Source: Eledone cirrhosa (Eukaryota). Taken from it: 64,000 nucleotides of DNA. The first letter of the stretch is position 1. The number at the start of each line of letters is the position of its first letter. The notes below the pieces were generated by a model. It was given only the letters and a program-made list of their open reading frames with translations, did not search any database and was not told the DNA's origin. The stretch lies in NCBI GenBank assembly GCA_964016885.1, contig OZ024761.1, positions 27,032,001 to 27,096,000 of the forward strand, in the 5' to 3' direction. Shown piece after piece: positions 13 to 43,009 of the stretch. Made by a program: the position numbers and the translations under genes.

Positions 13-53
<41 letters not shown>

Positions 54-556
54 TCAGCCAAATTAAAGAACGTAAACATTATTACAAGTAGTGTAAACAT
101 GAATTAAAGAACATAAATGTACCACCAAGAAGGCTGTTTCAAGATATGCACTTCAAGAAGAAATACAACATGTGCTTACGTCTACGACATAATTATAGCT
201 GGAAAGGACATTCATTGAACATGAACAATCTACTAGAGATAGAAGACAACAGAAACGAATATATGTTATGATATTAAATATATTTCTTATACTGTCATGT
301 CTTTTCTTTAAAACGTTTGAATCTCAATAAGGTGGAACAGATATTAAATACATTTGTTATATCATTATACTTTAGCTTTAACTTTACTTATTATTTCTAA
401 CTCTTATTAGAAAGAATACAAACTTAATAAAATCCTATATCTGTATAAATATGTGTGTTTGTATTAAAGTAAATAATAATATGCATGTTGACGAGTTGTA
501 AAAACCAAGGAAGTCAATCTACAGTTCTACACTAACTCAGACGCCCCCCCGCCCAC

Positions 557-639
557 AAAAATAGACATGTTTCGTCTAATAAACGAATGTCAAATAATTG
601 TTTCGGAAATACCGATGTAACACTAAATATATTACCGGT
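557..639 (-). ncRNA. Candidate small RNA gene, cassette A (snRNA/SL-RNA-like, ~80 nt)
   Basis: The minus strand reads ACCGGTAATATATTTAGTGTTACATCG|GTATTTCCGAAACAATTATTTGACATTCGTTTATTAGACGAAACATGTCTATTTTT. It has a 5' hairpin (ACCG/CGGT plus GTAATA/TGTTAC), a U-rich tract, a 3' hairpin and a T5 run. Inferred starts in the other copies: 7992, 15099, 22250, 29346, 36478, 43596, 50716, 57809. Transcription is inferred. Confidence 0.4.
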
Positions 640-659
640 GCAACTATGTCAATTAAGCC

Positions 660-702
660 TTTTATAAACTCACTCTAGTCATTTCAAATCGTGTTGAGAG
701 TA
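660..702 (-). promoter_or_regulatory. PSE-like element (702-677) plus TATAAAA (666-660) upstream of cassette A
   Basis: TACTCTCAACACGATTTGAAATGACT lies at -63..-38, and TATAAAA begins 27 nt upstream of the conserved block. The spacing is identical in B and C. Confidence 0.45.
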
Positions 703-975
703 ACGGGAATAAGAAAAAATAAACCGTTTGCCGAAGTTTCTAAATTTGTTAAAAATAATAGCGAAATCCGTGTCCAATGTATAATAAACCGGGACATTCA
801 CTGAACATGACGAATCTACTACAGATAGAAGACATCAGAAACGACCATCCTACCTGAAATATTATATGTTATTTTAAATATATTTCTTTTACTATTATGT
901 TTTTTTTAAAAAGCTTGAGTCTGAATAAAGTGTAGAAAACTACAATTTAACTGTTGTTATATCATTATATTTTAG

Positions 976-1083
976 TTCAAATCCCGCCGAGGTTGACTTT
1001 GCCTTTCATCCTTACGGGGTCGATAAAATAAAGTACCAGTAATGCACTGGGTAACTGCTGGCCTTGTGCCTAAAGTAGAAACA
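976..1083 (+). mobile_element. 5'-truncated tRNA-derived SINE (Octopus-type) with a 12-bp target-site duplication; present only in copy 1
   Basis: The TSD ATTATATTTTAG is at 964-975 and 1084-1095, and copies 2-9 have a single empty site. The element begins with B-box-like (G)TTCAAATCCC. Its body, CGCCGAGGTTGACTTTGCCTTTCATCCTTACGGGGTCGATAAAATAAAGTACCAGT..GGCCTTGTGCC, matches my recollection of the abundant Octopus SINE. Confidence 0.88.
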
Positions 1084-1189
1084 ATTATATTTTAGATTCA
1101 ACTTAATAATAAAATCCGATATGTGTATAGATATAATGTGTGTGAAAATATAATAATAAACTAGTTATACACTAACGCAGAGGACATAA

Positions 1190-1268
1190 GAAATGTTACC
1201 TCTAACGACCGACTGCCAAACAGACTAAGGCTCAGATATACCGGTGTAAAGCTAAAAATGTTAACGGT
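1190..1268 (-). ncRNA. Candidate small RNA gene, cassette B
   Basis: The minus strand reads ACCGTTAACATTTTTAGCTTTACACCG|GTATATCTGAGCC(T/A)TAGTCTGTTTGGCAGTCGG. The 27-nt block aligns ungapped with A, C and D; the 3' end is uncertain. Starts in the other copies: 8503, 15610, 22761, 29857, 36989, 44107, 51227, 58320. Confidence 0.38.
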
Positions 1269-1288
1269 GGAACAATTTCAGTTTACCC

Positions 1289-1331
1289 TTTTATAGACAC
1301 ACTCCAGTCATTTCAAATCGTGTTCAGAGTA
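1289..1331 (-). promoter_or_regulatory. PSE-like element (1331-1306) plus TATAAAA (1295-1289) upstream of cassette B
   Basis: TACTCTGAACACGATTTGAAATGACT at -63..-38; TATAAAAG at -27. Confidence 0.45.
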
Positions 1332-1844
1332 CCGGGAATAAAATATACAAAAAAACATTTCCCGAAGTTTCTAAATCTGTTAAAGATAACAGCCAAATCT
1401 CTCAGTCTGTCTCCGATGTGTAATAAACGGTGACACACATATATATATAGAAAGAGAGAAACAGATATGTTTATATATATATATATTTATATGTGTGTGT
1501 GTGTATATTAGTGAATATAATAGTATGTATATAAATATGCGTGTAATTAAATGTATATTATTCATATACAGGTATTCCGCTGTATTTGCGTGTGTTATGG
1601 TCCTAGAGTACCCGAGTATATTGAAAAACCGCGAACATTGGAGGTGGTCCATAAAAGTGCCTATAAACCTCAAAATATAACGTAAACTATAATAAACAAT
1701 AGAGGGATCGCCTTTTGCGAAGGGGCGTCCAATAGACCGGCAAATACGATATATTGTGATTAGTAATTTAGCGTTAAAACAATATATATTGTCATGAAAT
1801 ATATAAATAGTTTTGACTGCTCTTTCTAGCATACTCTAGAAAAA

Positions 1845-1854
1845 ACCGGAAGTG
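1845..1854 (+). promoter_or_regulatory. Canonical ETS/GABP-type site ACCGGAAGTG in the spacer between the divergent cassettes B and C
   Basis: Exact match to the ETS class I consensus, present in all 9 copies. A single motif only, so function is unproven. Confidence 0.35.
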
Positions 1855-2129
1855 GAGAAAATTGAAAAACTTCTTCTTTTTCTTCCTCTAACTTTTCAAA
1901 CAAAAGAAAATTTTATGTAAACAAAAACGAAATTTTTGCCACGAACGATAACTCGTCTCTGACTTAAATCCAAATTTTGGATAAAAAAAGCGTGTATGAA
2001 GTTTTCATATACACACTTGTTATTACTAGCTAGTCCTTATTTTATTTTGTTTTGGGGTCTTTGACTCCTATTTCTAGCATGACAGACCTTTTCCTGTTGT
2101 TCACTATGCATGTATGCATAAATACATGG

Positions 2130-2510
2130 ATGTATGTACATATATATGTATATATATATAAACTTTAATATAATCTTACAATAAATATTTGCTCTAGGGT
2201 ATTTTATATATATATATATTATATACATAAAATCTTTATCGAGCTGTCTTCGGATTTTAGTTTTCACATTTATTATTACTATTTATATATATATAAATAT
2301 ATATATGTATGCGTTTATATATGTATATGATTATATATACATTTATATAGATTTAAATGTATGGAAAAGTATGGTTATATAGATACCTGTATATATATAT
2401 ATATTATAATATATATATATTTATATATATTTCTTTATATATATATGTGTGCATATATAAACACACACACACAAACACACACACATATATATATATATAT
2501 ATTTCTTTAT
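2130..2510. repeat. Compound (TA)n/(CA)n low-complexity tract (other simple tracts at 1440-1510, 3099-3142, 5084-5155), repeated in each unit
   Basis: Directly visible; the source of the I/Y/T/H-rich spurious ORFs. Confidence 0.9.
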
Positions 2511-2669
2511 ACACTAGCAATATATTGAGTACATTTTATTTAATGTGGTTTCCACCTGACAGGGTGAGTCACAGCTAATGGCATCTATTGCCCAGAGTAG
2601 AAGATTTAACTGCTATGTCTAGCAGGTTTGGAATCTAATATTTTCCAAACAATTTTCCTTTACAACCTC

Positions 2670-2695
2670 CACTATGAACTTGATTTCAAATTACC
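2670..2695 (+). promoter_or_regulatory. PSE-like element upstream of cassette C
   Basis: CACTATGAACTTGATTTCAAATTACC at -63..-38. TTGATAAT occupies the TATA position and is followed by GGTAAACTGAAAT, identical to cassette B. Confidence 0.42.
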
Positions 2696-2732
2696 AGGCA
2701 GTCGGTTGATAATGGTAAACTGAAATATCTAC

Positions 2733-2805
2733 ACCGGTAACTTAATTAGTGTTACACCGCTATTGTTCAAACATAATCTATTTGGCATTCCTTAACGAAA
2801 GGTAG
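2733..2805 (+). ncRNA. Candidate small RNA gene, cassette C
   Basis: ACCGGTAACTTAATTAGTGTTACACCG|CTATTGTTCAAACATAATCTATTTGGCATTCCTTAACGAAAGG, with a GTAAC/GTTAC stem; GT is replaced by CT. Starts in the other copies: 9966, 17083, 24214, 31330, 38461, 45576, 52684, 59793. Confidence 0.36.
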
Positions 2806-3098
2806 TTTGTTGTGTCGTCTTCAATAGAGTATGTATACATACACGTATTCCTAAACAGTTTGACATTTATTCATAAGAGGTAATGGTTTTATTTAGACCT
2901 CGTCTCTTTTAGAATATATATACTCACAACACATCCATAAATTAATGAATTTCTCTATAATATGATATTAACGTTTTTATTTTTTACGAAAAAGCGTATT
3001 GTATATGTAGTTATACATGCATTAAATTTAATATAAACACTCCGTTTGGGGCACAAATATTAATTATATTATTTTACATACACATCCATTATACAAAA

Positions 3099-3144
<46 letters not shown>

Positions 3145-3473
3145 ATTTATTTGTATCTTTGTGTAACTAGAATTACAGGTGATTCGCCCCACCTCCAAGT
3201 AATTGATACTGTGACAAGACGGTTTCAGTTGGGTTTTATTCCAGAATTAAAGCAACTGTAAATTGTAAATAAAATTATGAACGAAAACACTGTTGCAGCA
3301 TACATATAAACTTTATTGGCATATTAGAATTGTTTCAATATCGATATCTTTGGGTAGAATCATATATAGAAACAGAGATAGATTGATAGTGTGTGTGTTA
3401 TTTTTCACCTGAAATCAATATGCAAGCTGGCCCTTGTGTCTTCATTTTAAAGCGACATATTTCTACCTCCCGG

Positions 3474-3511
3474 TGATTTGAACTCAGTTTCAAGTTACTC
3501 GATAGTATAAT
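3474..3511 (+). promoter_or_regulatory. PSE-like element (3474-3499) plus TATAAT (3506-3511) upstream of cassette D
   Basis: TGATTTGAACTCAGTTTCAAGTTACT at -65..-40, preceded by TCCCG as in A and B. Confidence 0.4.
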
Positions 3512-3538
3512 GAAGCAGAGAGACTATAAAAACGCTAC

Positions 3539-3610
3539 ACCGGTGGCATATTTAGTTTTACACCGGTACGACGTGCATGAAAGAGGTAATGTTTTATTTG
3601 TCTTCTGTGT
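3539..3610 (+). ncRNA. Candidate small RNA gene, cassette D
   Basis: ACCGGTGGCATATTTAGTTTTACACCG|GTACGACGTGCATGAAAGAGGTAATGTTTTATTTGTC, with a perfect 7-bp stem ACCGGTG/CACCGGT; the 3' end is uncertain. Starts in the other copies: 10768, 17883, 25036, 32134, 39267, 46380, 53478, 60593. Confidence 0.38.
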
Positions 3611-3719
3611 TACAGGATAACACTAGTTTAATTTTTTTAATTTATCCTACATGTTTGTAATATATATTCTCAACATAGCTATGATTTTATCTCAATTAGT
3701 AATTTCAACACTTCGGAGG

Positions 3720-3895
3720 TTACTGCTCACATTTCATCTCTTCCACTAAGACACTCTCCACAGACTTTCCTCTCCTCGTATCATCACCTAATGTTGTGTG
3801 AATCGCCACAAAGCCAAAGTTTCTCATTTCTAGCCCTTCTTGTCCAGAATGTCAGCTCCATGGAACTCCCTGTTTACTTCTTTCTGTAACAACAA
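3720..3895 (+). mobile_element. Decayed 3' fragment of a non-LTR retrotransposon ORF2 (CR1/L2/Jockey-like), present in every unit
   Basis: Frameshifted translation gives HRLSS..SPNVV..SRMSAPWNSLFTS, resembling the C-terminal 'S(F/Y)FPRT..LWNSLP' motif of these LINEs. The region is locally higher in GC. Confidence 0.5.
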
Positions 3896-4987
3896 GGTTT
3901 ACAATACTTGAAGTACATTGAATTTGGTTTCGGTGTATCTATAATAAAAACAAACCCACCCCAAGCGTGTGTGTAAAATAAACGCAAGGTTTGACCGAAC
4001 AAGAATATAAAATTTATTCCTTCTGACATTTACATCTTTTACATGGTATTATATTTTCATCATTACAGTGTCGAGAAAATGAAGTATCAGTAAAGAACTG
4101 GGATTATTGCTGGAATTATACTAAAATTAGAAAGAATTATATGAAGGGTTTTATGTACATTAAACAATAAAATGACTACTACACTTAACGACACTTTGAT
4201 ATTAATAGACATATTAGTCTTCATAGTAACTTAAGAGTTTACTAGCTAGTTCATTTATGTGTGTTTGTCTTATCTGTAAAGAGAGTTTGAAATGGTATGA
4301 AAAGGTGTTGAATTGAAGCATGTTTATTTATATGCTGATAGTCATACCACGAGGGAGAGAAAAATAAAGCTTTAAATGGTATGACTACGTGTTCAAATTA
4401 AGCAAGTTTCTCATAGTATGAGGATAAAAAAAAATTAACGTTATAATAAGTTGATTCGAAAGCCAACCACTGCATTCCCTAGTTCTATGTCTTACCACTA
4501 GACTATAAGGACCTAGACAATTTTTTTGTGAATCTATATCTATATAAACTTATTTTCAGTCTAACAATAAAATAGCTTTAAATGTGTTAATTTTCACTAC
4601 ATATTTGTTGGTCTGTAGGTGGGCGTGTGGGTAGTAGTGGTTTATCTATGCATGCTTTATGTATGTATAGATTTGGGGGTAGTGTTTCAATCTTCTTTAT
4701 CTAAAATTAAAAGTATTTATATTTTTTTTTTAAATTAAAAGAACGCTCTCTATCTTCTGGGCTACCCGGGGCCACTATTATCTCGAAGCCACCTTTTTAG
4801 TTCCCCCTACGCCCGAACCTTCACTACCTAGCTACACAACCATTACCTACGATACAACATCACTTTACCACACGTCTACCAAGCTGCCGTAATTCTACTG
4901 TGCAAATTTGATATATTTAAATCTAATTTAGCATTTCTTCATTGAAGAACCATTTAGGGTTTACGGCATAAGCGAAAAAAAAAATAT

Positions 4988-6855
4988 TTACTATTTCATT
5001 AGCTCTGGCAGGTATCGAAAACCTCATATATAGATTCATTTTAATTTCACCTACGTCAGAATCACGCATACATATTATTAATTTAAAAAAAAAAAAAAAA
5101 TCATTTTCAGCGACAAAATACATACCTCCACTCGAGATATGTGTGTGTGTGTATATTTTTATTATTATTCTGAACTGTAGTTTTAATTAAAAAAATATAT
5201 ATTATACTATTTCCTGTGTCCTCGCAGATATTGCAACTACATCTCTCTAGATTCATTTAAATACATTGCATTTGACTTACGTGAAATTAAGTATCATATA
5301 ATTACTTTTTCAAATTTTGTTTTCAAGTATCAAAATAAAAATACATTAGTAAGGTTTTCCACCTCATAAATGTGTGGTGGTTATAGACACTTAACTATTG
5401 TTATAGGGCTGTCGTATTTACAACTATGTGGGCATCTAATCCTTCCATCCTGCTGGTCTAAAAACAGCCAATTTATTTTTCCAGAGAGAGACATTTATTA
5501 TGACTTTAAACGCTAATTTTTCACTTCACTTACGATTCCTTTTTCCTCTCTTTAGATTGAATAAACAAAACCCTTTTCCGTCTACAATTATATTCAACGT
5601 AGCTCATATCAGTCTTCACAGTAAAGATTTTGCTACATCTCATTCAAGCTGGTATGATAGTAACCACAAAGTAAAGTGTTTAGCTCAACATTTATTCCGT
5701 AGTAAGTGTCATAAGAAAGGTTTGTCTGTCTAAAAACCTAAGTAGATTTCAAATTTATTGCTAATTAAACAAAACTTTAAAATAATCCATACTAAAGCCA
5801 CAACCATTTATTATCTACGTCTCACCCGAAGAAAAAAAACGATCAAATTATTACGAGGAGTGTAGACAGATGGATAAAGCTAATAAACAATTAATTTATA
5901 CATATGCATGTACGTATTGTGTTTAAATATACTCCAACACAGACGGTGCCTACGAAAAACATAACATTACCGCCTATGAACAAATTTTGGCGTAATACTT
6001 ACTAAATCTATTTTACCATTTGCTTAATGAACAAGCACATACATTGTTTGATATAATGAAAAAAAAAATATATATATATATACATATTACTATTTCATAA
6101 GCTCTGGCAGGTATCGAAAACCTCATATATAGATTTATTTTAATTTCACTTACGTCGAAAACATATACATAATTATTTTTTTATAATTTATCGATTGGGT
6201 TTCCAATCTCAGAAATATCTCCACTAGAGATGTGTGTGTTTCTCTTTATTATTCCTTTGAAATGATTTTTAGTCCTGGTAGATGTTGAAATCCCATCAAT
6301 AGATTCATTTAAATATATTTTATTTGACTTACGTGAATTTAAAAAATGATATAATTATCTTTAAAATTTTCCTTTCCAGTACAAAAATAAAAATACATTA
6401 GTATGTATTTCAGTCACACAAATGCGTTGGTTTCATAGACACTTAACTATTGTTGCAGGGATGCCGTAAATAGCGTCATGTGGGCATTTATACTACCCGG
6501 TTGAGACAATCCCAGCCTCCTAGTATACAAATAGCCGATTAATTTTGCGAGAGAGAAAGAGATACTTTTATTATGTCTTTAAACGTTACTTTTGCGATTG
6601 AACTTTTCCTTTTTCCTCCCTTTAGACTGAATAAACCCAAACATTTTACGGCTACAATTCTATTCAACATTACGATATCTGCTTCAATCTGTTATTGGTG
6701 TGGTGGAGGAGTAGAACACAAAATAAAATGTCGAGTTAATTATTTACTCCGTAAAAAGTGTCAAACGGTGGCACACTGGTATAAGATTTGGTGGTATAAA
6801 CAAACTAACAAATAGATTTCAAATTTATCGGCAGCTAAACAAAACTTTAAAATAA
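4988..6855. repeat. Second old internal duplication: E (4988-5785) vs F (6087-6855)
   Basis: Colinear anchors GCTCTGGCAGGTATCGAAAACCTCATATATAGATT, CTCCACT(C/A)GAGAT, TAGATTCATTTAAATA, ATTTGACTTACGTGAA, ATAGACACTTAACTATTGTT, ATGTGGGCAT, CTTTAAACG, TAGATTTCAAATTTAT and AAACAAAACTTTAAAATAA. Confidence 0.92.
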
Positions 6856-7223
6856 GCAATAATGAAGACAATTCAGACCAAATCTCACTTCCATATTAGC
6901 CTTTCAATTCAGTAGACCCTAATTACTTTATTAATAATCACAAAACAAGGCCACTTATTCACACGAGTCCAGACAAAATATTCATTTAACAAGAATTACT
7001 ACAACGATAGTGCAAGAAAATCGTTGTTTCTAAATCAGAGAACGTTTCTATAACAAACACAAGCGTATTAAAAGTAACAGGAATATTCATATTGCATAGA
7101 ACCAGGAAATAACTGCTATCAAATAGATGTTCTAGTGGCTAAGAACTTAATAGTTCCAGTTGTAATTGTGTTACACATATTCAGTAAGTATTTGCTAATT
7201 GAAATTATACTTTAAGGTATACT

Positions 7224-14462
<7,239 letters not shown>

Positions 14463-14474
14463 AAACTCACAAAC

Positions 14475-14513
<39 letters not shown>

Positions 14514-15822
14514 TCAGCCAAATTAAAGAACGTAAACATTATTACAAGTAGTGTAAACATGAATTAATGAACATAAATGTACCACCAAGAAGGCTGCCTC
14601 AAGATATGCACTTCAAGAAGAAATACAACATATGCTTACGTCTACGACATAATTATGGCTGGAAAGGACATTCATTGAACATGAAGAATCTACTAGAGAT
14701 AGAAGACAACAGAAACGAATATTTGTTATGATATTAAATATATTTCTTATACTGTCATGGCTTTTCTTTAAAACGTTTGAATCTCAATAAGGTGGAACAG
14801 ATATTAATTACATTTGTTATATCATTATACTTTATCTTTAACTTTACTTATTATTTCTAACTCTTATTAGAAAGAACACAAACTTAATAAAATCCTATAT
14901 CTGTATAAATATGTGTGTTTGTATTAAAGTAAATAATAATATGCATGTTGACGAGTTGTAAAAACCAAGGAAGTCAATCTACAGTTCTACACTAACTCAG
15001 ACGCCCCCCCGCCCACAAAAATAGACATGTTTCGTCTAATAAACGAATGTCAAATAATTGTTTCGGAAATACCGATGTAACACTAAATATATTACCGGTG
15101 CAACTATGTCAATTAAGCCTTTTATAAACTCACTCTAGTCATTTCAAATCGTGTTGAGAGTAACGGGAATAAGAAAAAATAAACCGTTTGCCGAAGTTTC
15201 TAAATTTGTTAAAAATAATAGCGAAATCTGTGTCCAATGTATAATAAACCGGGACATTCACTGAACATGACAAATCTACTACAGATAGAAGACATCAGAA
15301 ACGACCATCCTACCTGAAATATTATATGTTATTTTAAATATATTTCTTTTACTATTATGTTTTTTTTTAAAAAAGATTGAGTCTGAATAAAGTGTAGAAA
15401 ACTACAATTTAACTGTTGTTATATCATTATATTTTAGATTCAACTTAATAATAAAATCCGATATGTGTATAGATATAATGTGTGTGAAAATATAATAATA
15501 AACTAGTTATACACTAACGCAGCCGACATAAGAAATGTTACCTCTAACGACCGACTGCCAAACAGACTATGGCTCAGATATACCGGTGTAAAGCTAAAAA
15601 TGTTAACGGTGGAACAATTTCAGTTTACCCTTTTATAGACACACTCCAGTCATTTCAAATTGTGTTCAAAGTACCGGGAATAAAATATACAAAAAAACAT
15701 TTCCCGAAGTTTCTAAATCTGTTAAAGATAACAGCCAAATCTCTCACTCTGTCTCCGATGTGTAATAAACGGTGACACACATATATATATAGAAAGAGAG
15801 AAACAGATATGTTTATATATAC

Positions 15823-15856
<34 letters not shown>

Positions 15857-17448
15857 ATATTAGTGAATATAATAGTATGTATATAAATATGCGTGTAATT
15901 AAATGTATATTATTCATATACAGGTATTCCGATGTATTTGCGTGTGTTATGGTCCTAGAGTACCCGAGTATATTGAAAAACCGCGAACATTGGAGGTGGT
16001 CCATAAAAGTGCCTATAAACCTCAAAATATAACGTAAACTATAATAAACAATAGAGGGATCGCCTTTTGCGAAGGGGCGTCCAATAGACCGGCAAATACG
16101 ATATATTGTGATTAGTAATTTAGCGTTAAAACAATATATATTGTCATGAAATATAGAAATAGTTTTGACTGCTCTTTCTAGCATACTCTAGAAAAAACCG
16201 GAAGTGGAGAAAATTGAAAAACTTCTTCTTTTTCTTCCTCTAACTTTTCAAACAAAAGAAAATTTTATGTAAACAAAAACGAAATTTTTGCCACGAACGA
16301 TAACTCGTCTCTGACTTAAATCCAAATTTTGGATAAAAAAAGCGTGTATGAAGTTTTCATATACACACTTGTTATTACTAGCTAGTCCTTATTTTATTTT
16401 GTTTTGGGGTCTTTGACTCCTATTTCTAGCATGGCAGACCTTTTCCTGTTGTTCACTATGCATGTATGCATAAATACATGGATGTATGTACATATATATG
16501 TATATATATATAAACTTTAATATAATCTTACAATAAATATTTGCTCTAGGGTATTTTATATATATATATATTATATACATAAAATCTTTATCGAGCTGTC
16601 TTCGGATTTTAGTTTTCACATTTATTATTACTATTTATATATATATAAATATATATATGTATGCGTTTATATATGTATATGATTATATATACATTTATAT
16701 AGATTTAAATGTATGGAAAAGTATGGTTATATAGATACCTGTATATATATATATATTATAATATATATATATTTATATATATTTCTTTATATATATATGT
16801 GTGCATATATAAACACACACACACAAACACACACACATATATATATATATATTTCTTTATACACTAGCAATATATTGAGTACATTTTATTTAATGTGGTT
16901 TCCACCTGACAGGGTGAGTCACAGCTAATGGCATCTATTGCCCAGAGTAGAAGATTTAACTGCTATGTCTAGCAGGTTTGGAATCTAATATTTTCCAAAC
17001 AATTTTCCTTTACAACCTCCACTATGAACTTGATTTCAAATTACCGGGCAGTCGGTTGATAATGGTAAACTGAAATATCTACACCGGTAACTTAATTAGT
17101 GTTACACCGCTATTGTTCAAACATAATCTATTTGGCATTCCTTAACGAAAGGTAGTTTGTTGTGTCGTCTTCAATAGAGTATGTATACATACACGTATTC
17201 CTAAACAGTTTGACATTTATTCATAAGAGGTAATGGTTTTATTTAGACCTCGTCTCTTTTAGAATAGATATACTCACAACACATCCATAAATTAATGAAT
17301 TTCTCTATAATATGATATTAACGTTTTTATTTTTTACGAAAAAGCGTATTGTATATGTAGTTATACATGCATTAAATTTAATATAAACACTCCGTTTGGG
17401 GTACAAATATTAATTATATTATTTTACATACACATCCATTATACAAAA

Positions 17449-17486
<38 letters not shown>

Positions 17487-20400
17487 CTATTTATTTGTAT
17501 CTTTGTGTAACTAGAATTACAGGTGATTCGCCCCACCTCCAAGTAATTGATACTGTGACAAGACGGTTTCAGTTGGGTTTTATTCCAGAATTAAAGCAAC
17601 TGTAAATTGTAAATAAAATTATGAACGAAAACACTGTTGCAGCATACATATAAACTTTATTGGCATATTAGAATTGTTTCAATATCGATATCTTTGGGTA
17701 GAATCATATATAGAAACAGAGATAGATTGATAGTGTGTGTGTTATTTTTCACCTGAAATCAATATGCAAGCTGGCCCTTGTGTCTTCATTTTAAAGCGAC
17801 ATATTTCTACCTCCCGGTGATTTGAACTCAGTTTCAAGTTACTCGATAGTATAATGAAGCAGAGAGACTATAAAAACGCTACACCGGTGGCATATTTAGT
17901 TTTACACCGGTACGACGTGCATGAAAGAGGTAATGTTTTATTTGTCTTCTGTGTTACAGGATAACACTAGTTTAATTTTTTTAATTTATCCTACATGTTT
18001 GTAATATATATTCTCAACATAGCTATGATTTTATCTCAATTAGTAATTTCAACACTTCGGAGGTTACTGCTCACATTTCATCTCTTCCACTAAGACACTC
18101 TCCACAGACTTTCCTCTCCTCGTATCATCACCTAATGTTGTGTGAATCGCCACAAAGCCAAAGTTTCTCATTTCTAGCCCTTCTTGTCCAGAATGTCAGC
18201 TCCATGGAACTCCCTGTTTACTTCTTTCTGTAACAACAAGGTTTACAATACTTGAAGTACATTGAATTTGGTTTCGGTGTATCTATAATAAAAACAAACC
18301 CACCCCAAGCGTGTGTGTAAAATAAACGCAAGGTTTGACCGAACAAGAATATAAAATTTATTCCTTCTGACATTTACATCTTTTACATGGTATTATATTT
18401 TCATCATTACAGTGTCGAGAAAATGAAGTATCAGTAAAGAACTGGGATTATTGCTGGAATTATACTAAAATTAGAAAGAATTATATGAAGGGTTTTATGT
18501 ACATTAAACAATAAAATGACTACTACACTTAACGACACTTTGATATTAATAGACATATTAGTCTTCATAGTAACTTAAGAGTTTACTAGCTAGTTCATTT
18601 ATGTGTGTTTGTCTTATCTGTAAAGAGAGTTTGAAATGGTATGAAAAGGTGTTGAATTGAAGCATGTTTATTTATATGCTGATAGTCATACCACGAGGGA
18701 GAGAAAAATAAAGCTTTAAATGGTATGACTACGTGTTCAAATTAAGCAAGTTTCTCATAGTATGAGGATAAAAAAAAATTAACGTTATAATAAGTTGATT
18801 CGAAAGCCAACCACTGCATTCCCTAGTTCTATGTCTTACCACTAGACTATAAGGACCTAGACAATTTTTTTGTGAATCTATATCTATATAAACTTATTTT
18901 CAGTCTAACAATAAAATAGCTTTAAATGTGTTAATTTTCACTACATATTTGTTGGTCTGTAGGTGGGCGTGTGGGTAGTAGTGGTTTATCTATGCATGCT
19001 TTATGTATGTATAGATTTGGGGGTAGTGTTTCAATCTTCTTTATCTAAAATTAAAAGTATTTATATTTTTTTTTTAAATTAAAAGAACGCTCTCTATCTT
19101 CTGGGCTACCCGGGGCCACTATTATCTCGAAGCCACCTTTTTAGTTCCCCCTACGCCCGAACCTTCACTACCTAGCTACACAACCATTACCTACGATACA
19201 ACATCACTTTACCACACGTCTACCAAGCTGCCGTAATTCTACTGTGCAAATTTGATATATTTAAATCTAATTTAGCATTTCTTCATTGAAGAACCATTTA
19301 GGGTTTACGGCATAAGCGAAAAAAAAAATATTTACTATTTCATTAGCTCTGGCAGGTATCGAAAACCTCATATATAGATTCATTTTAATTTCACCTACGT
19401 CAGAATCACGCATACATATTATTAATTTAAAAAAAAAAAAAAAAAAAATCATTTTCAGCGACAAAATACATACCTCCACTCGAGATATGTGTGTGTGTGT
19501 GTGTGTGTTTGTGTATATTTTTATTATTATTATTCTGAACTGTAGTTTTAATTAAAAAAATATATATTATACTATTTCCTGTGTCCTCGCAGATATTGCA
19601 ACTACATCTCTCTAGATTCATTTAAATACATTGCATTTGACTTACGTGAAATTAAGTATCATATAATTACTTTTTCAAATTTTGTTTTCAAGTATCAAAA
19701 TAAAAATACATTAGTAAGGTTTTCCACCTCATAAATGTGTGGTGGTTATAGACACTTAACTATTGTTATAGGGCTGTCGTATTTACAACTATGTGGGCAT
19801 CTAATCCTTCCATCCTGCTGGTCTAAAAACAGCCAATTTATTTTTCCAGAGAGAGACATTTATTATGACTTTAAACGCTAATTTTTCACTTCACTTACGA
19901 TTCCTTTTTCCTCTCTTTAGATTGAATAAACAAAACCCTTTTCCGTCTACAATTATATTCAACGTAGCTCATATCAGTCTTCACAGTAAAGATTTTGCTA
20001 CATCTCATTCAAGCTGGTATGATAGTAACCACAAAGTAAAGTGTTTAGCTCAACATTTATTCCGTAGTAAGTGTCATAAGAAAGGTTTGTCTGTCTAAAA
20101 ACCTAACAAGTAGATTTCAAATTTATTGCTAATTAAACAAAACTTTAAAATAATCCATACTAAAGCCACAACCATTTATTATCTACGTCTCACCCGAAGA
20201 AAAAAAACGATCAAATTATTACGAGGAGTGTAGACAGATGGATAAAGCTAATAAACAATTAATTTATACATATGCATGTACGTATTGTGTTTAAATATAC
20301 TCCAACACAGACGGTGCCTACGAAAAACATAACATTACCGCCTATGAACAAATTTTGGCGTAATACTTACTAAATCTATTTTACCATTTGCTTAATGAAC

Positions 20401-21591
20401 AAGCACATACATTGTTTGATATAATGAAAAAAAAAATATATATATATATACATATTACTATTTCATAAGCTCTGGCAGGTATCGAAAACCTCATATATAG
20501 ATTTATTTTAATTTCACTTACGTCGAAAACATATACATAATTATTTTTTTATAATTTATCGATTGGGTTTCCAATCTCAGAAATATCTCCACTAGAGATG
20601 TGTGTGTTTCTCTTTATTATTCCTTTGAAATGATTTTTAGTCCTGGTAGATGTTGAAATCCCATCAATAGATTCATTTAAATATATTTTATTTGACTTAC
20701 GTGAATTTAAAAAATGATATAATTATCTTTAAAATTTTCCTTTCCAGTACAAAAATAAAAATACATTAGTATGTATTTCAGTCACACAAATGCGTTGGTT
20801 TCATAGACACTTAACTATTGTTGCAGGGATGCCGTAAATAGCGTCATGTGGGCATTTATACTACCCGGTTGAGACAATCCCAGCCTCCTAGTATACAAAT
20901 AGCCGATTAATTTTGCGAGAGAGAAAGAGATACTTTTATTATGTCTTTAAACGTTACTTTTGCGATTGAACTTTTCCTTTTTCCTCCCTTTAGACTGAAT
21001 AAACCCAAACATTTTACGGCTACAATTCTATTCAACATTACGATATCTGCTTCAATCCGTTATTGGTGTGGTGGAGGAGTAGAACACAAAATAAAATGTC
21101 GAGTTAATTATTTACTCCGTAAAAAGTGTCAAACGGTGGCACACTGGTATAAGATTTGGTGGTATAAACAAACTAACAAATAGATTTCAAATTTATCGGC
21201 AGCTAAACAAAACTTTAAAATAAGCAATAATGAAGACAATTCAGACCAAATCTCACTTCCATATTAGCCTTTCAATTCAGTAGACCCTAATTACTTTATT
21301 AATAATCACAAAACAAGGCCACTTATTCACACGAGTCCAGACAAAATATTCATTTAACAAGAATTACTACAACGATAGTGCAAGAAAATCGTTGTTTCTA
21401 AATCAGAGAACGTTTCTATAACAAACACAAGCGTATTAAAAGTAACAGGAATATTCATATTGCATAGAACCAGGAAATAACTGCTATCAAATAGATGTTC
21501 TAGTGGCTAAGAACTTAATAGTTCCAGTTGTAATTGTGTTACACATATTCAGTAAGTATTTGCTAATTGAAATTATACTTTAAGGTATACT
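14463..21591. repeat. Repeat unit copy 3
   Basis: Direct comparison. Confidence 0.97.
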
Positions 21592-21603
21592 AAACTCACA
21601 AAC

Positions 21604-21664
<61 letters not shown>

Positions 21665-22946
21665 TCAGCCAAATTAAAGAACGTAAACATTATTACAAGT
21701 AGTGTAAACATGAATTAAAGAACATAAATGTACCACCAAGAAGGCTGCCTCAAGATATGCACTTCAAGAAGAAATACAACATATGCTTACGTCTACGACA
21801 TAATTATGGCTGGAAAGGACATTCATTGAACATGAAGAATCTACTAGAGATAGAAGACAACAGAAACGAATATTTGTTATGATATTAAATATATTTCTTA
21901 TACTGTCATGGCTTTTCTTTAAAACGTTTGAATCTCAATAAGGTGGAACAGATATTAATTACATTTGTTATATCATTATACTTTATCTTTAACTTTACTT
22001 ATTATTTCTAACTCTTATTAGAAAGAACACAAACTTAATAAAATCCTATATCTGTATAAATATGTGTGTTTGTATTAAAGTAAATAATAATATGCATGTT
22101 GACGAGTTGTAAAAACCAAGGAAGTCAATCTACAGTTCTACACTAACTCAGACGCCCCCCCGCCCACAAAAATAGACATGTTTCGTCTAATAAACGAATG
22201 TCAAATAATTGTTTCGGAAATACCGATGTAACACTAAATATATTACCGGTGCAACTATGTCAATTAAGCCTTTTATAAACTCACTCTAGTCATTTCAAAT
22301 CGTGTTGAGAGTAACGGGAATAAGAAAAAATAAACCGTTTGCCGAAGTTTCTAAATTTGTTAAAAATAATAGCGAAATCTGTGTCCAATGTATAATAAAC
22401 CGGGACATTCACTGAACATGACAAATCTACTACAGATAGAAGACATCAGAAACGACCATCCTACCTGAAATATTATATGTTATTTTAAATATATTTCTTT
22501 TACTATTATGTTTTTTTTTAAAAAAGATTGAGTCTGAATAAAGTGTAGAAAACTACAATTTAACTGTTGTTATATCATTATATTTTAGATTCAACTTAAT
22601 AATAAAATCCGATATGTGTATAGATATAATGCGTGTGAAAATATAATAATAAACTAGTTATACACTAACGCAGCCGACATAAGAAATGTTACCTCTAACG
22701 ACCGACTGCCAAACAGACTATGGCTCAGATATACCGGTGTAAAGCTAAAAATGTTAACGGTGGAACAATTTCAGTTTACCCTTTTATAGACACACTCCAG
22801 TCATTTCAAATTGTGTTCAAAGTACCGGGAATAAAATATACAAAAAAACATTTCCCGAAGTTTCTAAATCTGTTAAAGATAACAGCCAAATCTCTCACTC
22901 TGTCTCCGATGTGTAATATATATAGAAAGAGAGAAACAGATATGTT

Positions 22947-22987
<41 letters not shown>

Positions 22988-24579
22988 ATATTAGTGAATA
23001 TAATAGTATGTATATAAATATGCGTGTAATTAAATGTATATCATTCATATACAGGTATTCCGATGTATTTGCGTGTGTTATGGTCCTAGAGTACCCGAGT
23101 ATATTGAAAAACCGCGAACATTGGAGGAGGTCCATAAAAGTGCCTATAAACCTCAAAATATAACGTAAACTATAATAAACAATAGAGGGATCGCCTTTTG
23201 CGAAGGGGCGTCCAATAGACCGGCAAATACGATATATTGTGATTAGTAATTTAGCGTTAAAACAATATATATTGTCATGAAATATATAAATAGTTTTGAC
23301 TGCTCTTTCTAGCATACTCTAGAAAAAACCGGAAGTGGAGAAAATTGAAAAACTTCTTCTTTTTCTTCCTCTAACTTTTCAAACAAAAGAAAATTTTATG
23401 TAAACAAAAACGAAATTTTTGCCACGAACGATAACTCGTCTCTGACTTAAATCCAAATTTTGGATAAAAAAAGCGTGTATGAAGTTTTCATATACACACT
23501 TGTTATTACTAGCTAGTCCTTATTTTATTTTGTTTTGGGGTCTTTGACTCCTATTTCTAGCATGACAGACCTTTTCCTTTTGTTCACTATGCATGTATGC
23601 ATAAATACATGGATGTATGTACATATATATGTATATATATATAAACTTTAATATAATCTTACAATAAATATTTGCTCTAGGGTATTTTATATATATATAT
23701 ATTATATACATAAAATCTTTATCGAGCTGTCTTCGGATTTTAGTTTTCACATTTATTATTACTATTTATATATATATAAATATATATATGTATGCGTTTA
23801 TATATGTATATGATTATATATACATTTATATAGATTTAAATGTATGGAAAAGTATGGTTATATAGATACCTGTATATATATATATATATTATAATATATA
23901 TATATTTATATATATTTCTTTATATATATATGTGTGCATATATAAACACACACACACAAACACACACATATATATATATATATTTCTTTATACACTAGCA
24001 ATATATTGAGTACATTTTATTTAATGTGGTTTCCACCTGACAGGGTGAGTCACAGCTAATGGCATCTATTGCCCAGAGTAGAAGATTTAACTGCTATGTC
24101 TAGCAGGTCTGGAATCTAATATTTTCCAAACAATTTTCCTTTACAACCTCCACTATGAACTTGATTTCAAATTACCGGGCAGTCGGTTGATAATGGTAAA
24201 CTGAAATATCTACACCGGTAACTTAATTAGTGTTACACCGCTATTGTTCAAACATAATCTATTTGGCATTCCTTAACGAAAGGTAGTTTGTTGTGTCGTC
24301 TTCAATAGAGTATGTATACATACACGTATTCCTAAACAGTTTGACATTTATTCATAAGAGGTAATGGTTTTATTTAGACCTCGTCTCTTTTAGAATATAT
24401 ATACTCACAACACATCCATAAATTAATGAATTTCTCTATAATATGATATTAACGTTTTCATTTTTTACGAAAAAGCGTATTGTATATGTAGTTATACATG
24501 CATTAAATTTAATATAAACACTCCGTTTGGGGCACAAATATTAATTATATTATTTTACATACACATCCATTATACAAAA

Positions 24580-24641
<62 letters not shown>

Positions 24642-27600
24642 ATTTATTTGTGTCTTTGTGTAACTAGAATTACAGGTGATTCGCCCCACCTCCAAGTAAT
24701 TGATACTGTGACAAGACGGTTTCAGTTGGGTTTTATTCCAGAATTAAAGCAACTGTAAATTGTAAATAAAATTATGAACGAAAACACTGTTGCAGCATAC
24801 ATATAAACTTTATTGGCATATTAGAATTGTTTCAATATCGATATCTTTGGGTAGAATCATATATAGAAACAGAGATAGATTGATAGTGTGCGTGTTATTT
24901 TTCACCTGAAATCAATATGCAAGCTGGCCCTTGTGTCTTCATTTTAAAGCGACATATTTCTACCTCCCGGTGATTTGAACTCAGTTTCAAGTTACTCGAT
25001 AGTATAATGAAGCAGAGAGACTATAAAAACGCTACACCGGTGGCATATTTAGTTTTACACCGGTACGACGTGCATGAAAGAGGTAATGTTTTATTTGTCT
25101 TCTGTGTTACAGGATAACACTAGTTTAATTTTTTTAATTTATCCTACATGTTTGTAATATATATTCTCAACATAGCTATGATTTTATCTCAATTAGTAAT
25201 TTCAACACTTCGGAGGTTACTGCTCACATTTCATCTCTTCCACTAAGACACTCTCCACAGACTTTCCTCTCCTCGTATCATCACCTAATGTTGTGTGAAT
25301 CGCCACAAAGCCAAAGTTTCTCATTTCTAGCCCTTCTTGTCCAGAATGTCAGCTCCATGGAACTCCCTGTTTACTTCTTTCTGTAACAACAAGGTTTACA
25401 ATACTTGAAGTACATTGAATTTGGTTTCGGTGTATCTATAATAAAAACAAACCCACCCCAAGCGTGTGTGTAAAATAAACGCAAGGTTTGACCGAACAAG
25501 AATATAAAATTTATTCCTTCTGACATTTACATCTTTTACATGGTATTATATTTTCATCATTACAGTGTCGAGAAATGAAGTATCAGTAAAGAACTGGGAT
25601 TATTGCTGGAATTATACTAAAATTAGAAAGAATTATATGAAGGGTTTTATGTACATTAAACAATAAAATGACTACTACACTTAACGACACTTTGATATTA
25701 ATAGACATATTAGTCTTCATAGTAACTTAAGAGTTTACTAGCTAGTTCATTTATGTGTGTTTGTCTTATCTGTAAAGAGAGTTTGAAATGGTATGAAAAG
25801 GTGTTGAATTGAAGCATGTTTATTTATATGCTGATAGTCATACCACGAGGGAGAGAAAAATAAAGCTTTAAATGGTATGACTACGTGTTCAAATTAAGCA
25901 AGTTTCTCATAGTATGAGGATAAAAAAAAATTAACGTTATAATAAGTTGATTCGAAAGCCAACCACTGCATTCCCTAGTTCTATGTCTTACCACTAGACT
26001 ATAAGGACCTAGACAATTTTTTTGTGAATCTATATCTATATAAACTTATTTTCAGTCTAACAATAAAATAGCTTTAAATGTGTTAATTTTCACTACATAT
26101 TTGTTGGTCTGTAGGTGGGCGTGTGGGTAGTAGTGGTTTATCTATGCATGCTTTATGTATGTATAGATTTGGGGGTAGTGTTTCAATGTTCTTTATCTAA
26201 AATTAAAAGTATTTATATATTTTTTTTAAATTAAAAGAACGCTCTCTATCTTCTGGGCTACCCGGGGCCACTATTATCTCGAAGCCACCTTTTTAGTTCC
26301 CCCTACGCCCGAACCTTCACTACCTAGCTACACAACCATTACCTACGATACAACATCACTTTACCACACGTCTACCAAGCTGCCGTAATTCTACTGTGCA
26401 AATTTGATATATTTAAATCTAATTTAGCATTTCTTCATTGAAGAACCATTTAGGGTTTACGGCATAAGCGAAAAAAAAAATATTTACTATTTCATTAGCT
26501 CTGGCAGGTATCGAAAACCTCATATATAGATTCATTTTAATTTCACCTACGTCAGAATCACGCATACATATTATTAATTTAAAAAAAAAAAAAAAAAATC
26601 ATTTTCAGCGACAAAATACATACCTCCACTCGAGACATGCGTGTGTGTGTATATTTTTATTATTATTCTGAACTGTAGTTTTAATTAAAAAAATATATAT
26701 TATACTATTTCCTGTGTCCTCGCAGATATTGCAACTACATCTCTCTAGATTCATTTAAATACATTGCATTTGACTTACGTGAAATTAAGTATCATATAAT
26801 TACTTTTTCAAATTTTGTTTTCAAGTATCAAAATAAAAATACATTAGTAAGGTTTTCCACCTCATAAATGTGTGGTGGTTATAGACACTTAACTATTGTT
26901 ATAGGGCTGTCGTATTTACAACTATGTGGGCATCTAATCCTTCCATCCTGCTGGTCTAAAAACAGCCAATTTATTTTTCCAGACTTTAAACGCTAATTTT
27001 TCACTTCACTTACGATTCCCTTTTCCTCTCTTTACATTGAATAAACAAAACCCTTTTCCGTCTACAATTATATTCAACGTAGCTCATATCAGTCTTCACA
27101 GTAAAGATTTTGCTACATCTCATTCAAGCTGGTATGATAGTAACCACAAAGTAAAGTGTTTAGCTCAACATTTATTCCGTAGTAAGTGTCATAAGAAAGG
27201 TTTGTCTGTCTAAAAACCTAACAAGTAGATTTCAAATTTATTGCTAATTAAACAAAACTTTAAAATAATCCATACTAAAGCCACAACCATTTATTATCTA
27301 CGTCTCACCCGAAGAAAAAAAACGATCAAATTATTACGAGGAGTGTAGACAGATGGATAAAGCTAATAAACAATTAATTTATACATATGCATGTACGTAT
27401 TGTGTTTAAATATACTCCAACACAGACGGTGCCTACGAAAAACATAACATTACCGCCTATGAACAAATTTTGGCGTAATACTTACTAAATCTATTTTACC
27501 ATTTGCTTAATGAACAAGCACATACATTGTTTGATATAATGAAAAAAAAAATATATATATATATACATATTACTATTTCATAAGCTCTGGCAGGTATCGA

Positions 27601-28706
27601 AAACCTCATATATAGATTTATTTTAATTTCACTTACGTCGAAAACATATACATAATTATTTTTTTATAATTTATCGATTGGGTTTCCAATCTCAGAAATA
27701 TCTCCACTAGAGATGTGTGTGTTTCTCTTTATTATTCCTTTGAAATGATTTTTAGTCCTGGTAGATGTTGAAATCCCATCAATAGATTCATTTAAATATA
27801 TTTTATTTGACTTACGTGAATTTAAAAAATGATATAATTATCTTTAAAATTTTCCTTTCCAGTACAAAAATAAAAATACATTAGTATGTATTTCAGTCAC
27901 ACAAATGCGTTGGTTTCATAGACACTTAACTATTGTTGCAGGGATGCCGTAAATAGCGTCATGTGGGCATTTATACTACCCGGTTGAGACAATCCCAGCC
28001 TCCTAGTATACAAATAGCCGATTAATTTTGCGAGAGAGAAAGAGATACTTTTATTATGTCTTTAAACGTTACTTTTGCGATTGAACTTTTCCTTTTTCCT
28101 CCCTTTAGACTGAATAAACCCAAACATTTTACGGCTACAATTCTATTCAACATTACGATATCTGCTTCAATCTGTTATTGGTGTGGTGGAGGAGTAGAAC
28201 ACAAAATAAAATGTCGAGTTAATTATTTACTCCGTAAAAAGTGTCAAACGGTGGCACACTGGTATAAGATTTGGTGGTATAAACAAACTAACAAATAGAT
28301 TTCAAATTTATCGGCAGCTAAACAAAACTTTAAAATAAGCAATAATGAAGACAATTCAGACCAAATCTCACTTCCATATTAGCCTTTCAATTCAGTAGAC
28401 CCTAATTACTTTATTAATAATCACAAAACAAGGCCACTTATTCACACGAGTCCAGACAAAATATTCATTTAACAAGAATTACTACAACGATAGTGCAAGA
28501 AAATCGTTGTTTCTAAATCAGAGAACGTTTCTATAACAAACACAAGCGTATTAAAAGTAACAGGAATATTCATATTGCATAGAACCAGGAAATAACTGCT
28601 ATCAAATAGATGTTCTAGTGGCTAAGAACTTAATAGTTCCAGTTGTAATTGTGTTACACATATTCAGTAAGTATTTGCTAATTGAAATTATACTTTAAGG
28701 TATACT
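21592..28706. repeat. Repeat unit copy 4 (two private small deletions near 22918 and 26982)
   Basis: Direct comparison. Confidence 0.97.
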
Positions 28707-28718
28707 AAACTCACAAAC

Positions 28719-28759
<41 letters not shown>

Positions 28760-30069
28760 TCAGCCAAATTAAAGAACGTAAACATTATTACAAGTAGTGT
28801 AAACATGAATTAAAGAACATAAATGTACCACCAAGAAGGCTGCCTCAAGATATGCACTTCAAGAAGAAATACAACATATGCTTACGTCTACGACATAATT
28901 ATGGCTGGAAAGGACATTCATTGAACATGAAGAATCTACTAGAGATAGAAGACAACAGAAACGAATATTTGTTATGATATTAAATATATTTCTTATACTG
29001 TCATGGCTTTTCTTTAAAACGTTTGAATCTCAATAAGGTGGAACAGATATTAATTACATTTGTTATATCATTATACTTTATCTTTAACTTTACTTATTAT
29101 TTCTAACTCTTATTAGAAAGAACACAAACTTAATAAAATCCTATATCTGTATAAATATGTGTGTTTGTATTAAAGTAAATAATAATATGCATGTTGACGA
29201 GTTGTAAAAACCAAGGAAGTCAATCTACAGTTCTACACTAACTCAGACGCCCCCCCCGCCCACAAAAATAGACATGTTTCGTCTAATAAACGAATGTCAA
29301 ATAATTGTTTCGGAAATACCGATGTAACACTAAATATATTACCGGTGCAACTATGTCAATTAAGCCTTTTATAAACTCACTCTAGTCATTTCAAATCGTG
29401 TTGAGAGTAACGGGAATAAGAAAAAATAAACCGTTTGCCGAAGTTTCTAAATTTGTTAAAAATAATAGCGAAATCTGTGTCCAATGTATAATAAACCGGG
29501 ACATTCACTGAACATGACAAATCTACTACAGATAGAAGACATCAGAAACGACCATCCTACCTGAAATATTATATGTTATTTTAAATATATTTCTTTTACT
29601 ATTATGTTTTTTTTTAAAAAAGATTGAGTCTGAATAAAGTGTAGAAAACTACAATTTAACTGTTGTTATATCATTATATTTTAGATTCAACTTAATAATA
29701 AAATCCGATATGTGTATAGATATAATGTGTGTGAAAATATAATAATAAACTAGTTATACACTAACGCAGCCGACATAAGAAATGTTACCTCTAACGACCG
29801 ACTGCCAAACAGACTATGGCTCAGATATACCGGTGTAAAGCTAAAAATGTTAACGGTGGAACAATTTCAGTTTACCCTTTTATAGACACACTCCAGTCAT
29901 TTCAAATTGTGTTCAAAGTACCGGGAATAAAATATACAAAAAAACATTTCCCGAAGTTTCTAAATCTGTTAAAGATAACAGCCAAATCTCTCACTCTGTC
30001 TCCGATGTGTAATAAACGGTGACACACATATAAATATAGAAAGAGAGAAACAGATATGTTTATATATAC

Positions 30070-30103
<34 letters not shown>

Positions 30104-31695: not shown

Positions 31696-31739
<44 letters not shown>

Positions 31740-34700: not shown

Positions 34701-35835
34701 ACTATTTCATAAGCTCTGGCAGGTATCGAAAACCTCATATATAGATTTATTTTAATTTCACTTACGTCGAAAACATATACATAATTATTTTTTTATAATT
34801 TATCGATTGGGTTTCCAATCTCAGAAATATCTCCACTAGAGATGTGTGTGTTTCTCTTTATTATTCCTTTGAAATGATTTTTAGTCCTGGTAGATGTTGA
34901 AATCCCATCAATAGATTCATTTAAATATATTTTATTTGACTTACGTGAATTTAAAAAATGATATAATTATCTTTAAAATTTTCCTTTCCAGTACAAAAAT
35001 AAAAATACATTAGTATGTATTTCAGTCACACAAATGCGTTGGTTTCATAGACACTTAACTATTGTTGCAGGGATGCCGTAAATAGCGTCATGTGGGCATT
35101 TATACTACCCGGTTGAGACAATCCCAGCCTCCTAGTATACAAATAGCCGATTAATTTTGCGAGAGAGAAAGAGATACTTTTATTATGTCTTTAAACGTTA
35201 CTTTTGCGATTGAACTTTTCCTTTTTCCTCCCTTTAGACTGAATAAACCCAAACATTTTACGGCTACAATTCTATTCAACATTACGATATCTGCTTCAAT
35301 CTGTTATTGGTGTGGTGGAGGAGTAGAACACAAAATAAAATGTCGAGTTAATTATTTACTCCGTAAAAAGTGTCAAACGGTGGCACACTGGTATAAGATT
35401 TGGTGGTATAAACAAACTAACAAATAGATTTCAAATTTATCGGCAGCTAAACAAAACTTTAAAATAAGCAATAATGAAGACAATTCAGACCAAATCTCAC
35501 TTCCATATTAGCCTTTCAATTCAGTAGACCCTAATTACTTTATTAATAATCACAAAACAAGGCCACTTATTCACACGAGTCCAGACAAAATATTCATTTA
35601 ACAAGAATTACTACAACGATAGTGCAAGAAAATCGTTGTTTCTAAATCAGAGAACGTTTCTATAACAAACACAAGCGTATTAAAAGTAACAGGAATATTC
35701 ATATTGCATAGAACCAGGAAATAACTGCTATCAAATAGATGTTCTAGTGGCTAAGAACTTAATAGTTCCAGTTGTAATTGTGTTACACATATTCAGTAAG
35801 TATTTGCTAATTGAAATTATACTTTAAGGTATACT
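28707..35835. repeat. Repeat unit copy 5
   Basis: Direct comparison. Confidence 0.97.
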
Positions 35836-35847
35836 AAACTCACAAAC

Positions 35848-35892
<45 letters not shown>

Positions 35893-37201: not shown

Positions 37202-37235
<34 letters not shown>

Positions 37236-38826: not shown

Positions 38827-38872
<46 letters not shown>

Positions 38873-42954: not shown

Positions 42955-42966
42955 AAACTCACAAAC

Positions 42967-43009
<43 letters not shown>

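Follow-up and report, generated by a model that had tools for sequence, protein, structure and literature searches.

A module of fixed spacing, present four times per unit of a tandem array in Eledone cirrhosa: a candidate family of small-RNA genes

The question

The stretch of Eledone cirrhosa DNA considered here (contig OZ024761.1, positions 27,032,001 to 27,096,000, whose 64,000 nucleotides are referred to below as the window) raises the question of whether four diverged loci, A to D, that recur in each unit of a tandem array are the genes of a family of small RNAs, as an earlier note on this DNA had proposed. Each locus, or cassette, has a conserved block (29 nt, numbered from +1) preceded at a nearly fixed distance by a conserved upstream element. 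Judged from their sequences, the four are paralogous copies of one module of about 175 bp in a homogenised tandem array, and the module family is uncatalogued, structured and real, its RNA product being a candidate one. The reading favoured here, with a probability of roughly 0.4, is that they are small-RNA genes of the small nuclear RNA (snRNA) type, transcribed by RNA polymerase II (Pol II), laid out like spliced-leader (SL) RNA genes and in some cases degenerate. A promoter-plus-small-RNA family is thus plausible, given the orientation, the fixed spacing, the gap-free alignment and the lack of any known family, whereas its U6-type version (TATA plus proximal sequence element, or PSE, and Pol III) fails.

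The array and the four blocks

The window, which has a G+C content of 30%, is a tandem array of nine units of about 7.1 kb with (TA)n between them, the last unit being cut by the window end. The array and the blocks (the latter located by pattern match and folded) are as follows.

51..64000, no strand: array of nine units, starting near 51, 7398, 14511, 21662, 28757, 35890, 43007, 50128 and 57221
611..639, minus strand: cassette A 29-nt block, predicted hairpin with z -2.4
1240..1268, minus strand: cassette B 29-nt block, T5 at +11, weak hairpin with z 0.05
2733..2761, plus strand: cassette C 29-nt block, z -0.2
3539..3567, plus strand: cassette D 29-nt block, predicted hairpin with z -3.3, T4 at +18

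The blocks have the positions, strands and letters originally claimed for them, including the C|A step at the start of each, and are unchanged in 9/9 units, giving 36 matches to a pattern that was, it must be remembered, derived from the blocks themselves (100 shuffles, searched at up to 3 mismatches, yielded none). Since the units are near-identical, with 7–75 substitutions per pair per ~7 kb, there are only four independent sequences among the 36 copies; 121 columns vary among the units and none of these falls inside a block, where about 2 would be expected, a difference that is not significant.

Although the four sequences are indeed distinct, with a pairwise block identity of 22–24/29 in all six pairs, their independence had been overstated. 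A and B belong to a single segmental tandem duplication of ~510 bp, about 80% alike throughout from -190 to +330, and because they share this duplication the TATAAAA of A and that of B (see below) amount to one observation. Nor is it generally true that the flanks of C and D are unlike those of A and B beyond the cassette. For C against B, 61/99 aligned columns from -175 to -70 are identical (p about 0.005), and there is downstream similarity both for B/C (p 0.013) and for B/D (p 0.009); the claim stands only for the upstream flank of D, which is unrelated to the other cassettes (p 0.36–0.77), the homology of D ending at about -70.

The upstream element, its spacer and the TATA words

The conserved upstream element is present as proposed, at a distance from the block of 38, 38, 38 and 40 nt in A, B, C and D respectively. 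It and the nearby TATAAAA words are located as follows, the elements by alignment together with a matrix (by alignment in the case of D) and the words from the sequence.

678..709, minus strand: cassette A upstream element (-70..-39), resembling a PSE in position only
660..666, minus strand: cassette A TATAAAA at -27
1307..1338, minus strand: cassette B upstream element
1289..1295, minus strand: cassette B TATAAAA at -27
2663..2694, plus strand: cassette C upstream element, the most diverged
3467..3498, plus strand: cassette D upstream element, without homology to other cassettes further upstream
3525..3531, plus strand: cassette D TATAAAA at -14, not the position seen in A and B

When a matrix made from three of the elements was used to find the fourth, the held-out element ranked in the top 4 of the unit's 14,016 positions, though narrowly in the case of C (15.9 bits versus 14.9 for the next site), and nothing else in the unit, including the E/F duplication described below, exceeded 5 bits except the cassettes' own reverse strands. 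Within the element (e.g. at 3473–3498) there are two TT(G/C)AA half-sites 11 bp apart, and their G/C position toggles between cassettes, so that the element can be taken either as a direct or as an inverted repeat; such half-sites suggest that whatever might bind here would be dimeric.

The intervening spacer had been described as much more variable, which holds for the other pairs (12–18/38 identical) but not for A/B (29/38) or B/C (23/38). TATAAAA does stand at -27 in A and B; D has the word at -14 and C lacks it, and 3/6 of the unit's TATAAAA words lie in the spacers. It is at this point that U6-type (type 3) Pol III genes, having a PSE, a TATA box and a T-run end, come into consideration. 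Cassette A alone would fit: its TATA precedes the G at +4 by about 30 nt, and its first T5, at +79, comes after a hairpin. However, the T5 at +11 in B and the T4 at +18 in D make such a gene unlikely, while C has no T4 until +155 and neither C nor D has TATA at the corresponding position; we rate this explanation as very improbable.

The downstream half of the module

The module is longer than the earlier note had it (~175 bp, from about -70 to +105), and neither its donor-like site nor the 3' part figures in that description. Downstream of the block come a linker, variable but of fixed length, then AG|GTA, then T-rich sequence, and last a common motif whose end lies near +105. The relevant features, of which the donor-like sites and the T5 run were read from the sequence and the 3' motifs found by alignment (with folding for D), are these.

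569..577, minus strand: cassette A, degenerate donor at +66, reading AC|GAA instead of AG|GTA
555..563, minus strand: cassette A T5 run; no other Sm-like word of the form AT4-6G is present in the cassettes
524..546, minus strand: cassette A shared 3' motif, preceded by a G run of variable length
1195..1203, minus strand: cassette B donor-like GAG|GTAA after +69
1164..1185, minus strand: cassette B shared 3' motif, possibly a 3'-end signal
2798..2806, plus strand: cassette C donor-like AAG|GTAG after +69
2814..2835, plus strand: cassette C shared 3' motif
2846..2892, plus strand: C2, in which the 3' half of the module is partly repeated, with another donor-like GAG|GTAA at 2876–2884 (nhmmer E 0.0012)
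3582..3590, plus strand: cassette D donor-like GAG|GTAA after +47, with a linker about 22 nt shorter than those of B and C
3600..3621, plus strand: cassette D shared 3' motif with a small hairpin

The donor-like AG|GTA thus follows +69 in B and C and +47 in D. Each of the unit's 3 AGAGGTAA words is a donor-like site downstream of a block and on the block strand, where 4/8 of its AGGTAR words also lie. The G run downstream of cassette A (~543–555) comprises 7 to 13 G depending on the unit, a variation that possibly comes from sequencing error.

Two further explanations have to be weighed against this anatomy. One, which we consider improbable, is that the cassettes are core promoters and first exons of short cis-spliced non-coding genes, with TATA, initiator, a 47–69-nt exon and an ordinary donor. 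The TATAAAA at -27 in A and B, the C|A start, the AG|GTA running directly into T-rich sequence and the acceptor-like CAG|G in the E/F cores downstream of D would all suit such genes; on the other hand C lacks TATA and D has it displaced, the next cassette comes within 500–800 bp, A and B are directed away from the E/F sense strand, and there is no coding frame (none of the 8 open reading frames (ORFs) scanned passes the Pfam cut-off). The other, to which we give a small probability, is that the module consists of protein-binding sites acting at the DNA level, both conserved islands being imperfect palindromes; in one version the 27-nt block would be the real PSE, with an RNA start near +70. 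The paired half-sites of the upstream element and the self-complementary ends of the block speak for sites of this kind, and for the block as PSE there is the further point that it ends about 41 nt before AG|GTA, a PSE-to-start distance that fits in B and C. Against this, the changes in the D block are compatible with G-U pairing, conservation after +70 falls below that of the block (6/30 columns invariant), and the dominant form of D is 22 nt short of the spacing that a block-as-PSE would need.

Signs of constraint and what weighs against small-RNA genes

Evidence of selection on the module is modest. Across the four cassettes 13/22 columns are invariant at -60..-39, 10/38 in the spacer and 18/29 in the block, and column permutation gives p 0.05 for one such window and 0.002 for two. 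B and C align over 142 nt with no gap at 65% identity, where 7.2 gaps would be expected (P 0.0007) at the rate of the unit's other duplications, which show 33 gaps per 228 mismatches; the corresponding test over -70..+29 gives P values of 0.064, 0.007, 0.19, 0.055, 0.34 and 0.03 for the six pairs. The pairing of the block hairpin is kept in 32/36 cells, with three one-sided changes, and the two A-to-G changes in D preserve it as G-U. A second hairpin is predicted in each cassette, differing between cassettes, and the z-score of the whole module ranges from 0 to -2.2.

The main rival to the favoured reading, and in our estimate only somewhat less probable, is that the cassettes are neutral relics: a 200–300-bp segment was anciently duplicated and inverted several times, drifted, and was later amplified as a macrosatellite for unrelated reasons, the block being merely its best-preserved patch. 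Consistent with this, the permutation p for one window is only 0.05, and the unit contains another old duplication, E/F, with a 36-nt identical run, as well as pieces of dispersed repeats. Neutral drift is, however, hard to square with a block identity of 22–24/29 in six pairs however old their split, with the gap-free B/C spacing (P 0.0007), with a second conserved island at a fixed distance (p 0.002), or with the way in which the homology of D stops at the element's edge.

A number of observations weigh directly against the reading as small-RNA genes, and the first two of these also favour relics. The A/B block (23/29) is no more conserved than the A/B flanks (about 80%), and the B/C block (22/29) is only modestly above the B/C upstream flank (61/99), B and C being homologous well beyond the module at similar identity. 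The hairpins are unstable in B (z 0.05) and C (z -0.2) and stable only in A (-2.4) and D (-3.3); among the changes in them none is two-sided (compensatory), and covariation does not rise above that of shuffles (254/500). Cassette A, which is upstream as conserved as the others, has AC|GAA at the donor position, the donor words that do exist are not independent because they are homologous, and AT4-6G does not occur within 200 nt in B, C or D. The upstream element is, from its reverse-strand matrix hits, an imperfect palindrome, a form that to our knowledge is not typical of PSEs. As regards sequence, the fly PSEA core ATTC-CAA, in the part of PMC1761439 drawn on, has only ATTC-C in common with the element, and that in A and B only. 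Since schistosome snRNA promoters are for their part described as highly derived (PMC2770079, in part), a cross-phylum comparison of PSEs decides nothing here.

Searches against known families and the literature

In Rfam, none of the 4227 families reached its gathering score over the 64 kb; nor was there an Rfam match at E<=10 for U1–U7, U11, U12, U4atac, U6atac, 5S, Y, vault or 7SK RNA (cassette C being covered at that threshold by wide scans only). The window contains no tRNAs. Weak Rfam matches to mir-297 and similar families (on microsatellites) and to mir-1175 were rejected, as was one to snoR23, which scored 25 bits against a cut-off of 70 and lay on the opposite strand. Precursor microRNAs were likewise rejected: of the unit's 80-nt windows, the 16 that are most stable are mostly microsatellite folds, only one being a cassette window (B, z -1.9). 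As to coding potential, 42 stop-to-stop ORFs were found, and the 8 scanned gave no match passing the Pfam cut-off and one below it.

Among metagenome contigs the strict block pattern had no matches, and in viral contigs even a loose pattern had none. The loose pattern did match one metagenome contig, by chance and inside a long protein-coding frame; this open frame (L001:180-1160, minus strand) looks by eye like a ubiquitin-specific protease and is unrelated.

In the literature, six 14-letter words from the blocks found no match, and a search that left most subscription papers outside it turned up no report of a cephalopod SL RNA or of the array. The papers cited in this text by PMC number are drawn on for parts of their text. 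Within those parts, a study of octopus small RNAs (PMC9699675) has trans-splicing only as a filter for circular RNAs, PMC11703226, PMC12460157, PMC13652810 and PMC12220107 contain nothing on this locus, PMC7854359 reports no leaders in an annelid, and PMC3795323 mentions mollusc SL matches as putative and unconfirmed.

Sequencing reads

Of the 7 sequencing runs listed, four contained the stretch, no RNA run among them, and these four were compared on unit 2. X1 and X2, which are one sample (organism A), cover all 30 bins of the unit, and in them it is abundant and present in several variant classes, including another type of A–B spacer. The depth of single contigs over the cassettes is about 130–500, against 4–12 for minor contigs, which suggests a large array (although depth is not equal to copy number). 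In the 40 of 806 difference rows listed there are none in the blocks and 3 in the upstream elements, each of these being to a letter already present in another cassette or unit.

Two loose contig ends in X1, one contig each, lie at +29 of D (3567; in unit 2, 10796), and suggest a form of D with about 22 more linker bases, in which the donor would stand at +69/+70. Given that form, the D of the window looks like a deletion, and since the short form dominates X1 and is found in 9/9 window units this deletion would have swept the array.

The same reads bear on whether the cassettes are ends or copies of a small dispersed transposon, an idea with palindromic elements in its favour, together with a piece of dispersed repeat just upstream of B (8601–8639, with many unlike flanks in X4). 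In X1, however, the cassettes have the depth of the unit as a whole, about 1100–1800, and are in this unlike the dispersed repeat at 8830–9299, which reaches 6600–7800; restriction-site associated DNA (RAD) reads over A, B and C number only 2–5 per direction; and no more than 6% of X1 contigs run on into unlike sequence, with few ends at cassettes among the loose ends listed (1226 others being outside that list). A transposon is on these grounds the least probable of the explanations considered.

Run X4 (organism B, share 0.05) matches chiefly in dispersed repeats, along with patches of the unit at low depth, of which one is 188/191 alike; conservation in a second species was rejected as an explanation of these patches, which look like carry-over.

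Other features of the unit

A second old duplication in the unit, E/F, spans ~1.1 kb and is 78% alike (576 matches, 163 mismatches). Its core, in which 36 nt are identical, lies at 4984–5080 and 6087–6180 (in unit 2, 12213–12308 and 13323–13416) and carries an acceptor-like CAG|G and a TATA-like word; going by these words, the core may represent either a conserved splice acceptor and a short last exon or a promoter of another type. The matrix scan of the unit did not find the upstream element of A–D in E/F.

Unit 8 (50128–57199) is the most divergent, with 55–75 differences from the others, and unit 1 comes second. Unit 1 alone has, between A and B, a ~100-nt SINE-like (short interspersed element) insertion at ~975–1083, bounded by a direct repeat of ~18 nt (from overlapping BLAST hits); the insertion is recent, its homogenisation still pending. 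The unit also contains several pieces of dispersed repeats, and those at 975–1083 and upstream of C we take to resemble octopus SINE-like repeats.

A proposed mechanism and its significance

From the observed anatomy, spacing and array we infer, for the favoured reading of Pol II snRNA-type genes, the steps from factor binding and the start site through transcription and capping to use of the donor, in the following way. A SNAPc-type factor would bind the element at -70..-39, and Pol II would begin transcription at the A of ACCG or close by, yielding a capped RNA of roughly 85–110 nt with its 5' end folded into a hairpin. The spliceosome might then recognise the donor and so release the capped 5' portion as an exon resembling a leader, and the array would provide the high copy number that such RNAs need. 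Cassettes A, in which the donor is lost, and D, in which the linker is shortened, would be degenerate or variant members kept by concerted evolution. The more specific claim that these are octopus SL RNA genes, with a capped and unusually long leader of 47–69 nt trans-spliced onto some mRNAs, an independent and hitherto unreported mollusc origin of SL trans-splicing, and a non-canonical Sm site, must be considered decidedly doubtful.

If the module is transcribed, it represents an abundant small-RNA family outside Rfam, in a cephalopod, a group studied for its unusual RNA biology. If, in addition, the donor is used in trans, molluscs would join the few animal groups with SL trans-splicing, and the annotation of cephalopod mRNA 5' ends would change; if the module is neutral, this is an ordinary macrosatellite with old internal duplications.

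Comparison with known systems

SL RNA genes, as described from flatworms, Hydra, rotifers, nematodes and chaetognaths, are arranged in tandem and carry a GGTA donor, and between phyla they have little sequence in common (PMC12582326, PMC3795323). The present array resembles them in being tandem, multicopy and under concerted evolution, and in having several variant genes per genome, some with dead donors. A donor is expected to read G|GTA after an exon ending in WWG or GAG (PMC3795323); B, C, C2 and D have GAG or AAG before GTA, and A lacks this. A T-rich stretch follows the donor, that of D being like the interrupted Sm-like motif of trematodes. To the points already set against SL-like genes must be added the differences from this class. 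Reported leaders are of 22–25, 36–39 and 46 nt (PMC7986045, PMC3795323), compared with 69 nt here in B and C and 47 nt in D. The conserved part here is the 5' end and not the donor side. An Sm site of the form AT4-6G, or a known variant, is expected 10–60 nt after the donor (PMC7986045), whereas the T-rich stretch here comes 4–15 nt after it; B, C and D have no such site, and the AT5G of A lies 11 nt past a dead donor. Stem-loops around the donor and the Sm site are also expected of SL RNAs; the second hairpin predicted in each cassette varies from one to the next, and no 3' hairpin is conserved. Molluscs do not figure among the trans-splicing groups listed in the part of PMC7986045 drawn on. 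By these criteria the cassettes fall outside the SL RNA gene class, the leader being too long and a canonical Sm site after the donor lacking. Since Sm-like sites in flatworms are themselves non-canonical and dead-donor copies occur there (PMC12582326), these failures of length and Sm site lower the case for being SL genes more than that for working like them.

Pol II snRNA genes, in insects with PSEA and PSEB (PMC1761439, in part), are similar in having an upstream element, here of 22–32 bp, at a strict distance from a start that in our case is a presumed one. They differ in that the cassettes match none of U1, U2, U4, U5, U7, U11, U12 or U4atac in Rfam, have a semi-palindromic element, carry TATAAAA in A and B, and come as four diverged genes per unit in both orientations.

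The human RNU2 array consists of multi-kb tandem units with microsatellites, and in this the present array is like it. Type 3 Pol III genes (U6, 7SK, Y RNA, nematode sbRNA) share with A and B an upstream element plus a TATA box near -27 to -30, but differ from the cassettes in the T runs inside the B and D blocks, the lack of TATA at that position in C and D, and the lack of an Rfam match. Finally, macrosatellites and other complex satellite DNA also have multi-kb units about 99% alike, with repeat fragments, microsatellites and internal duplications; what sets the present array apart from them is a module of fixed spacing that occurs four times per unit and in two orientations.

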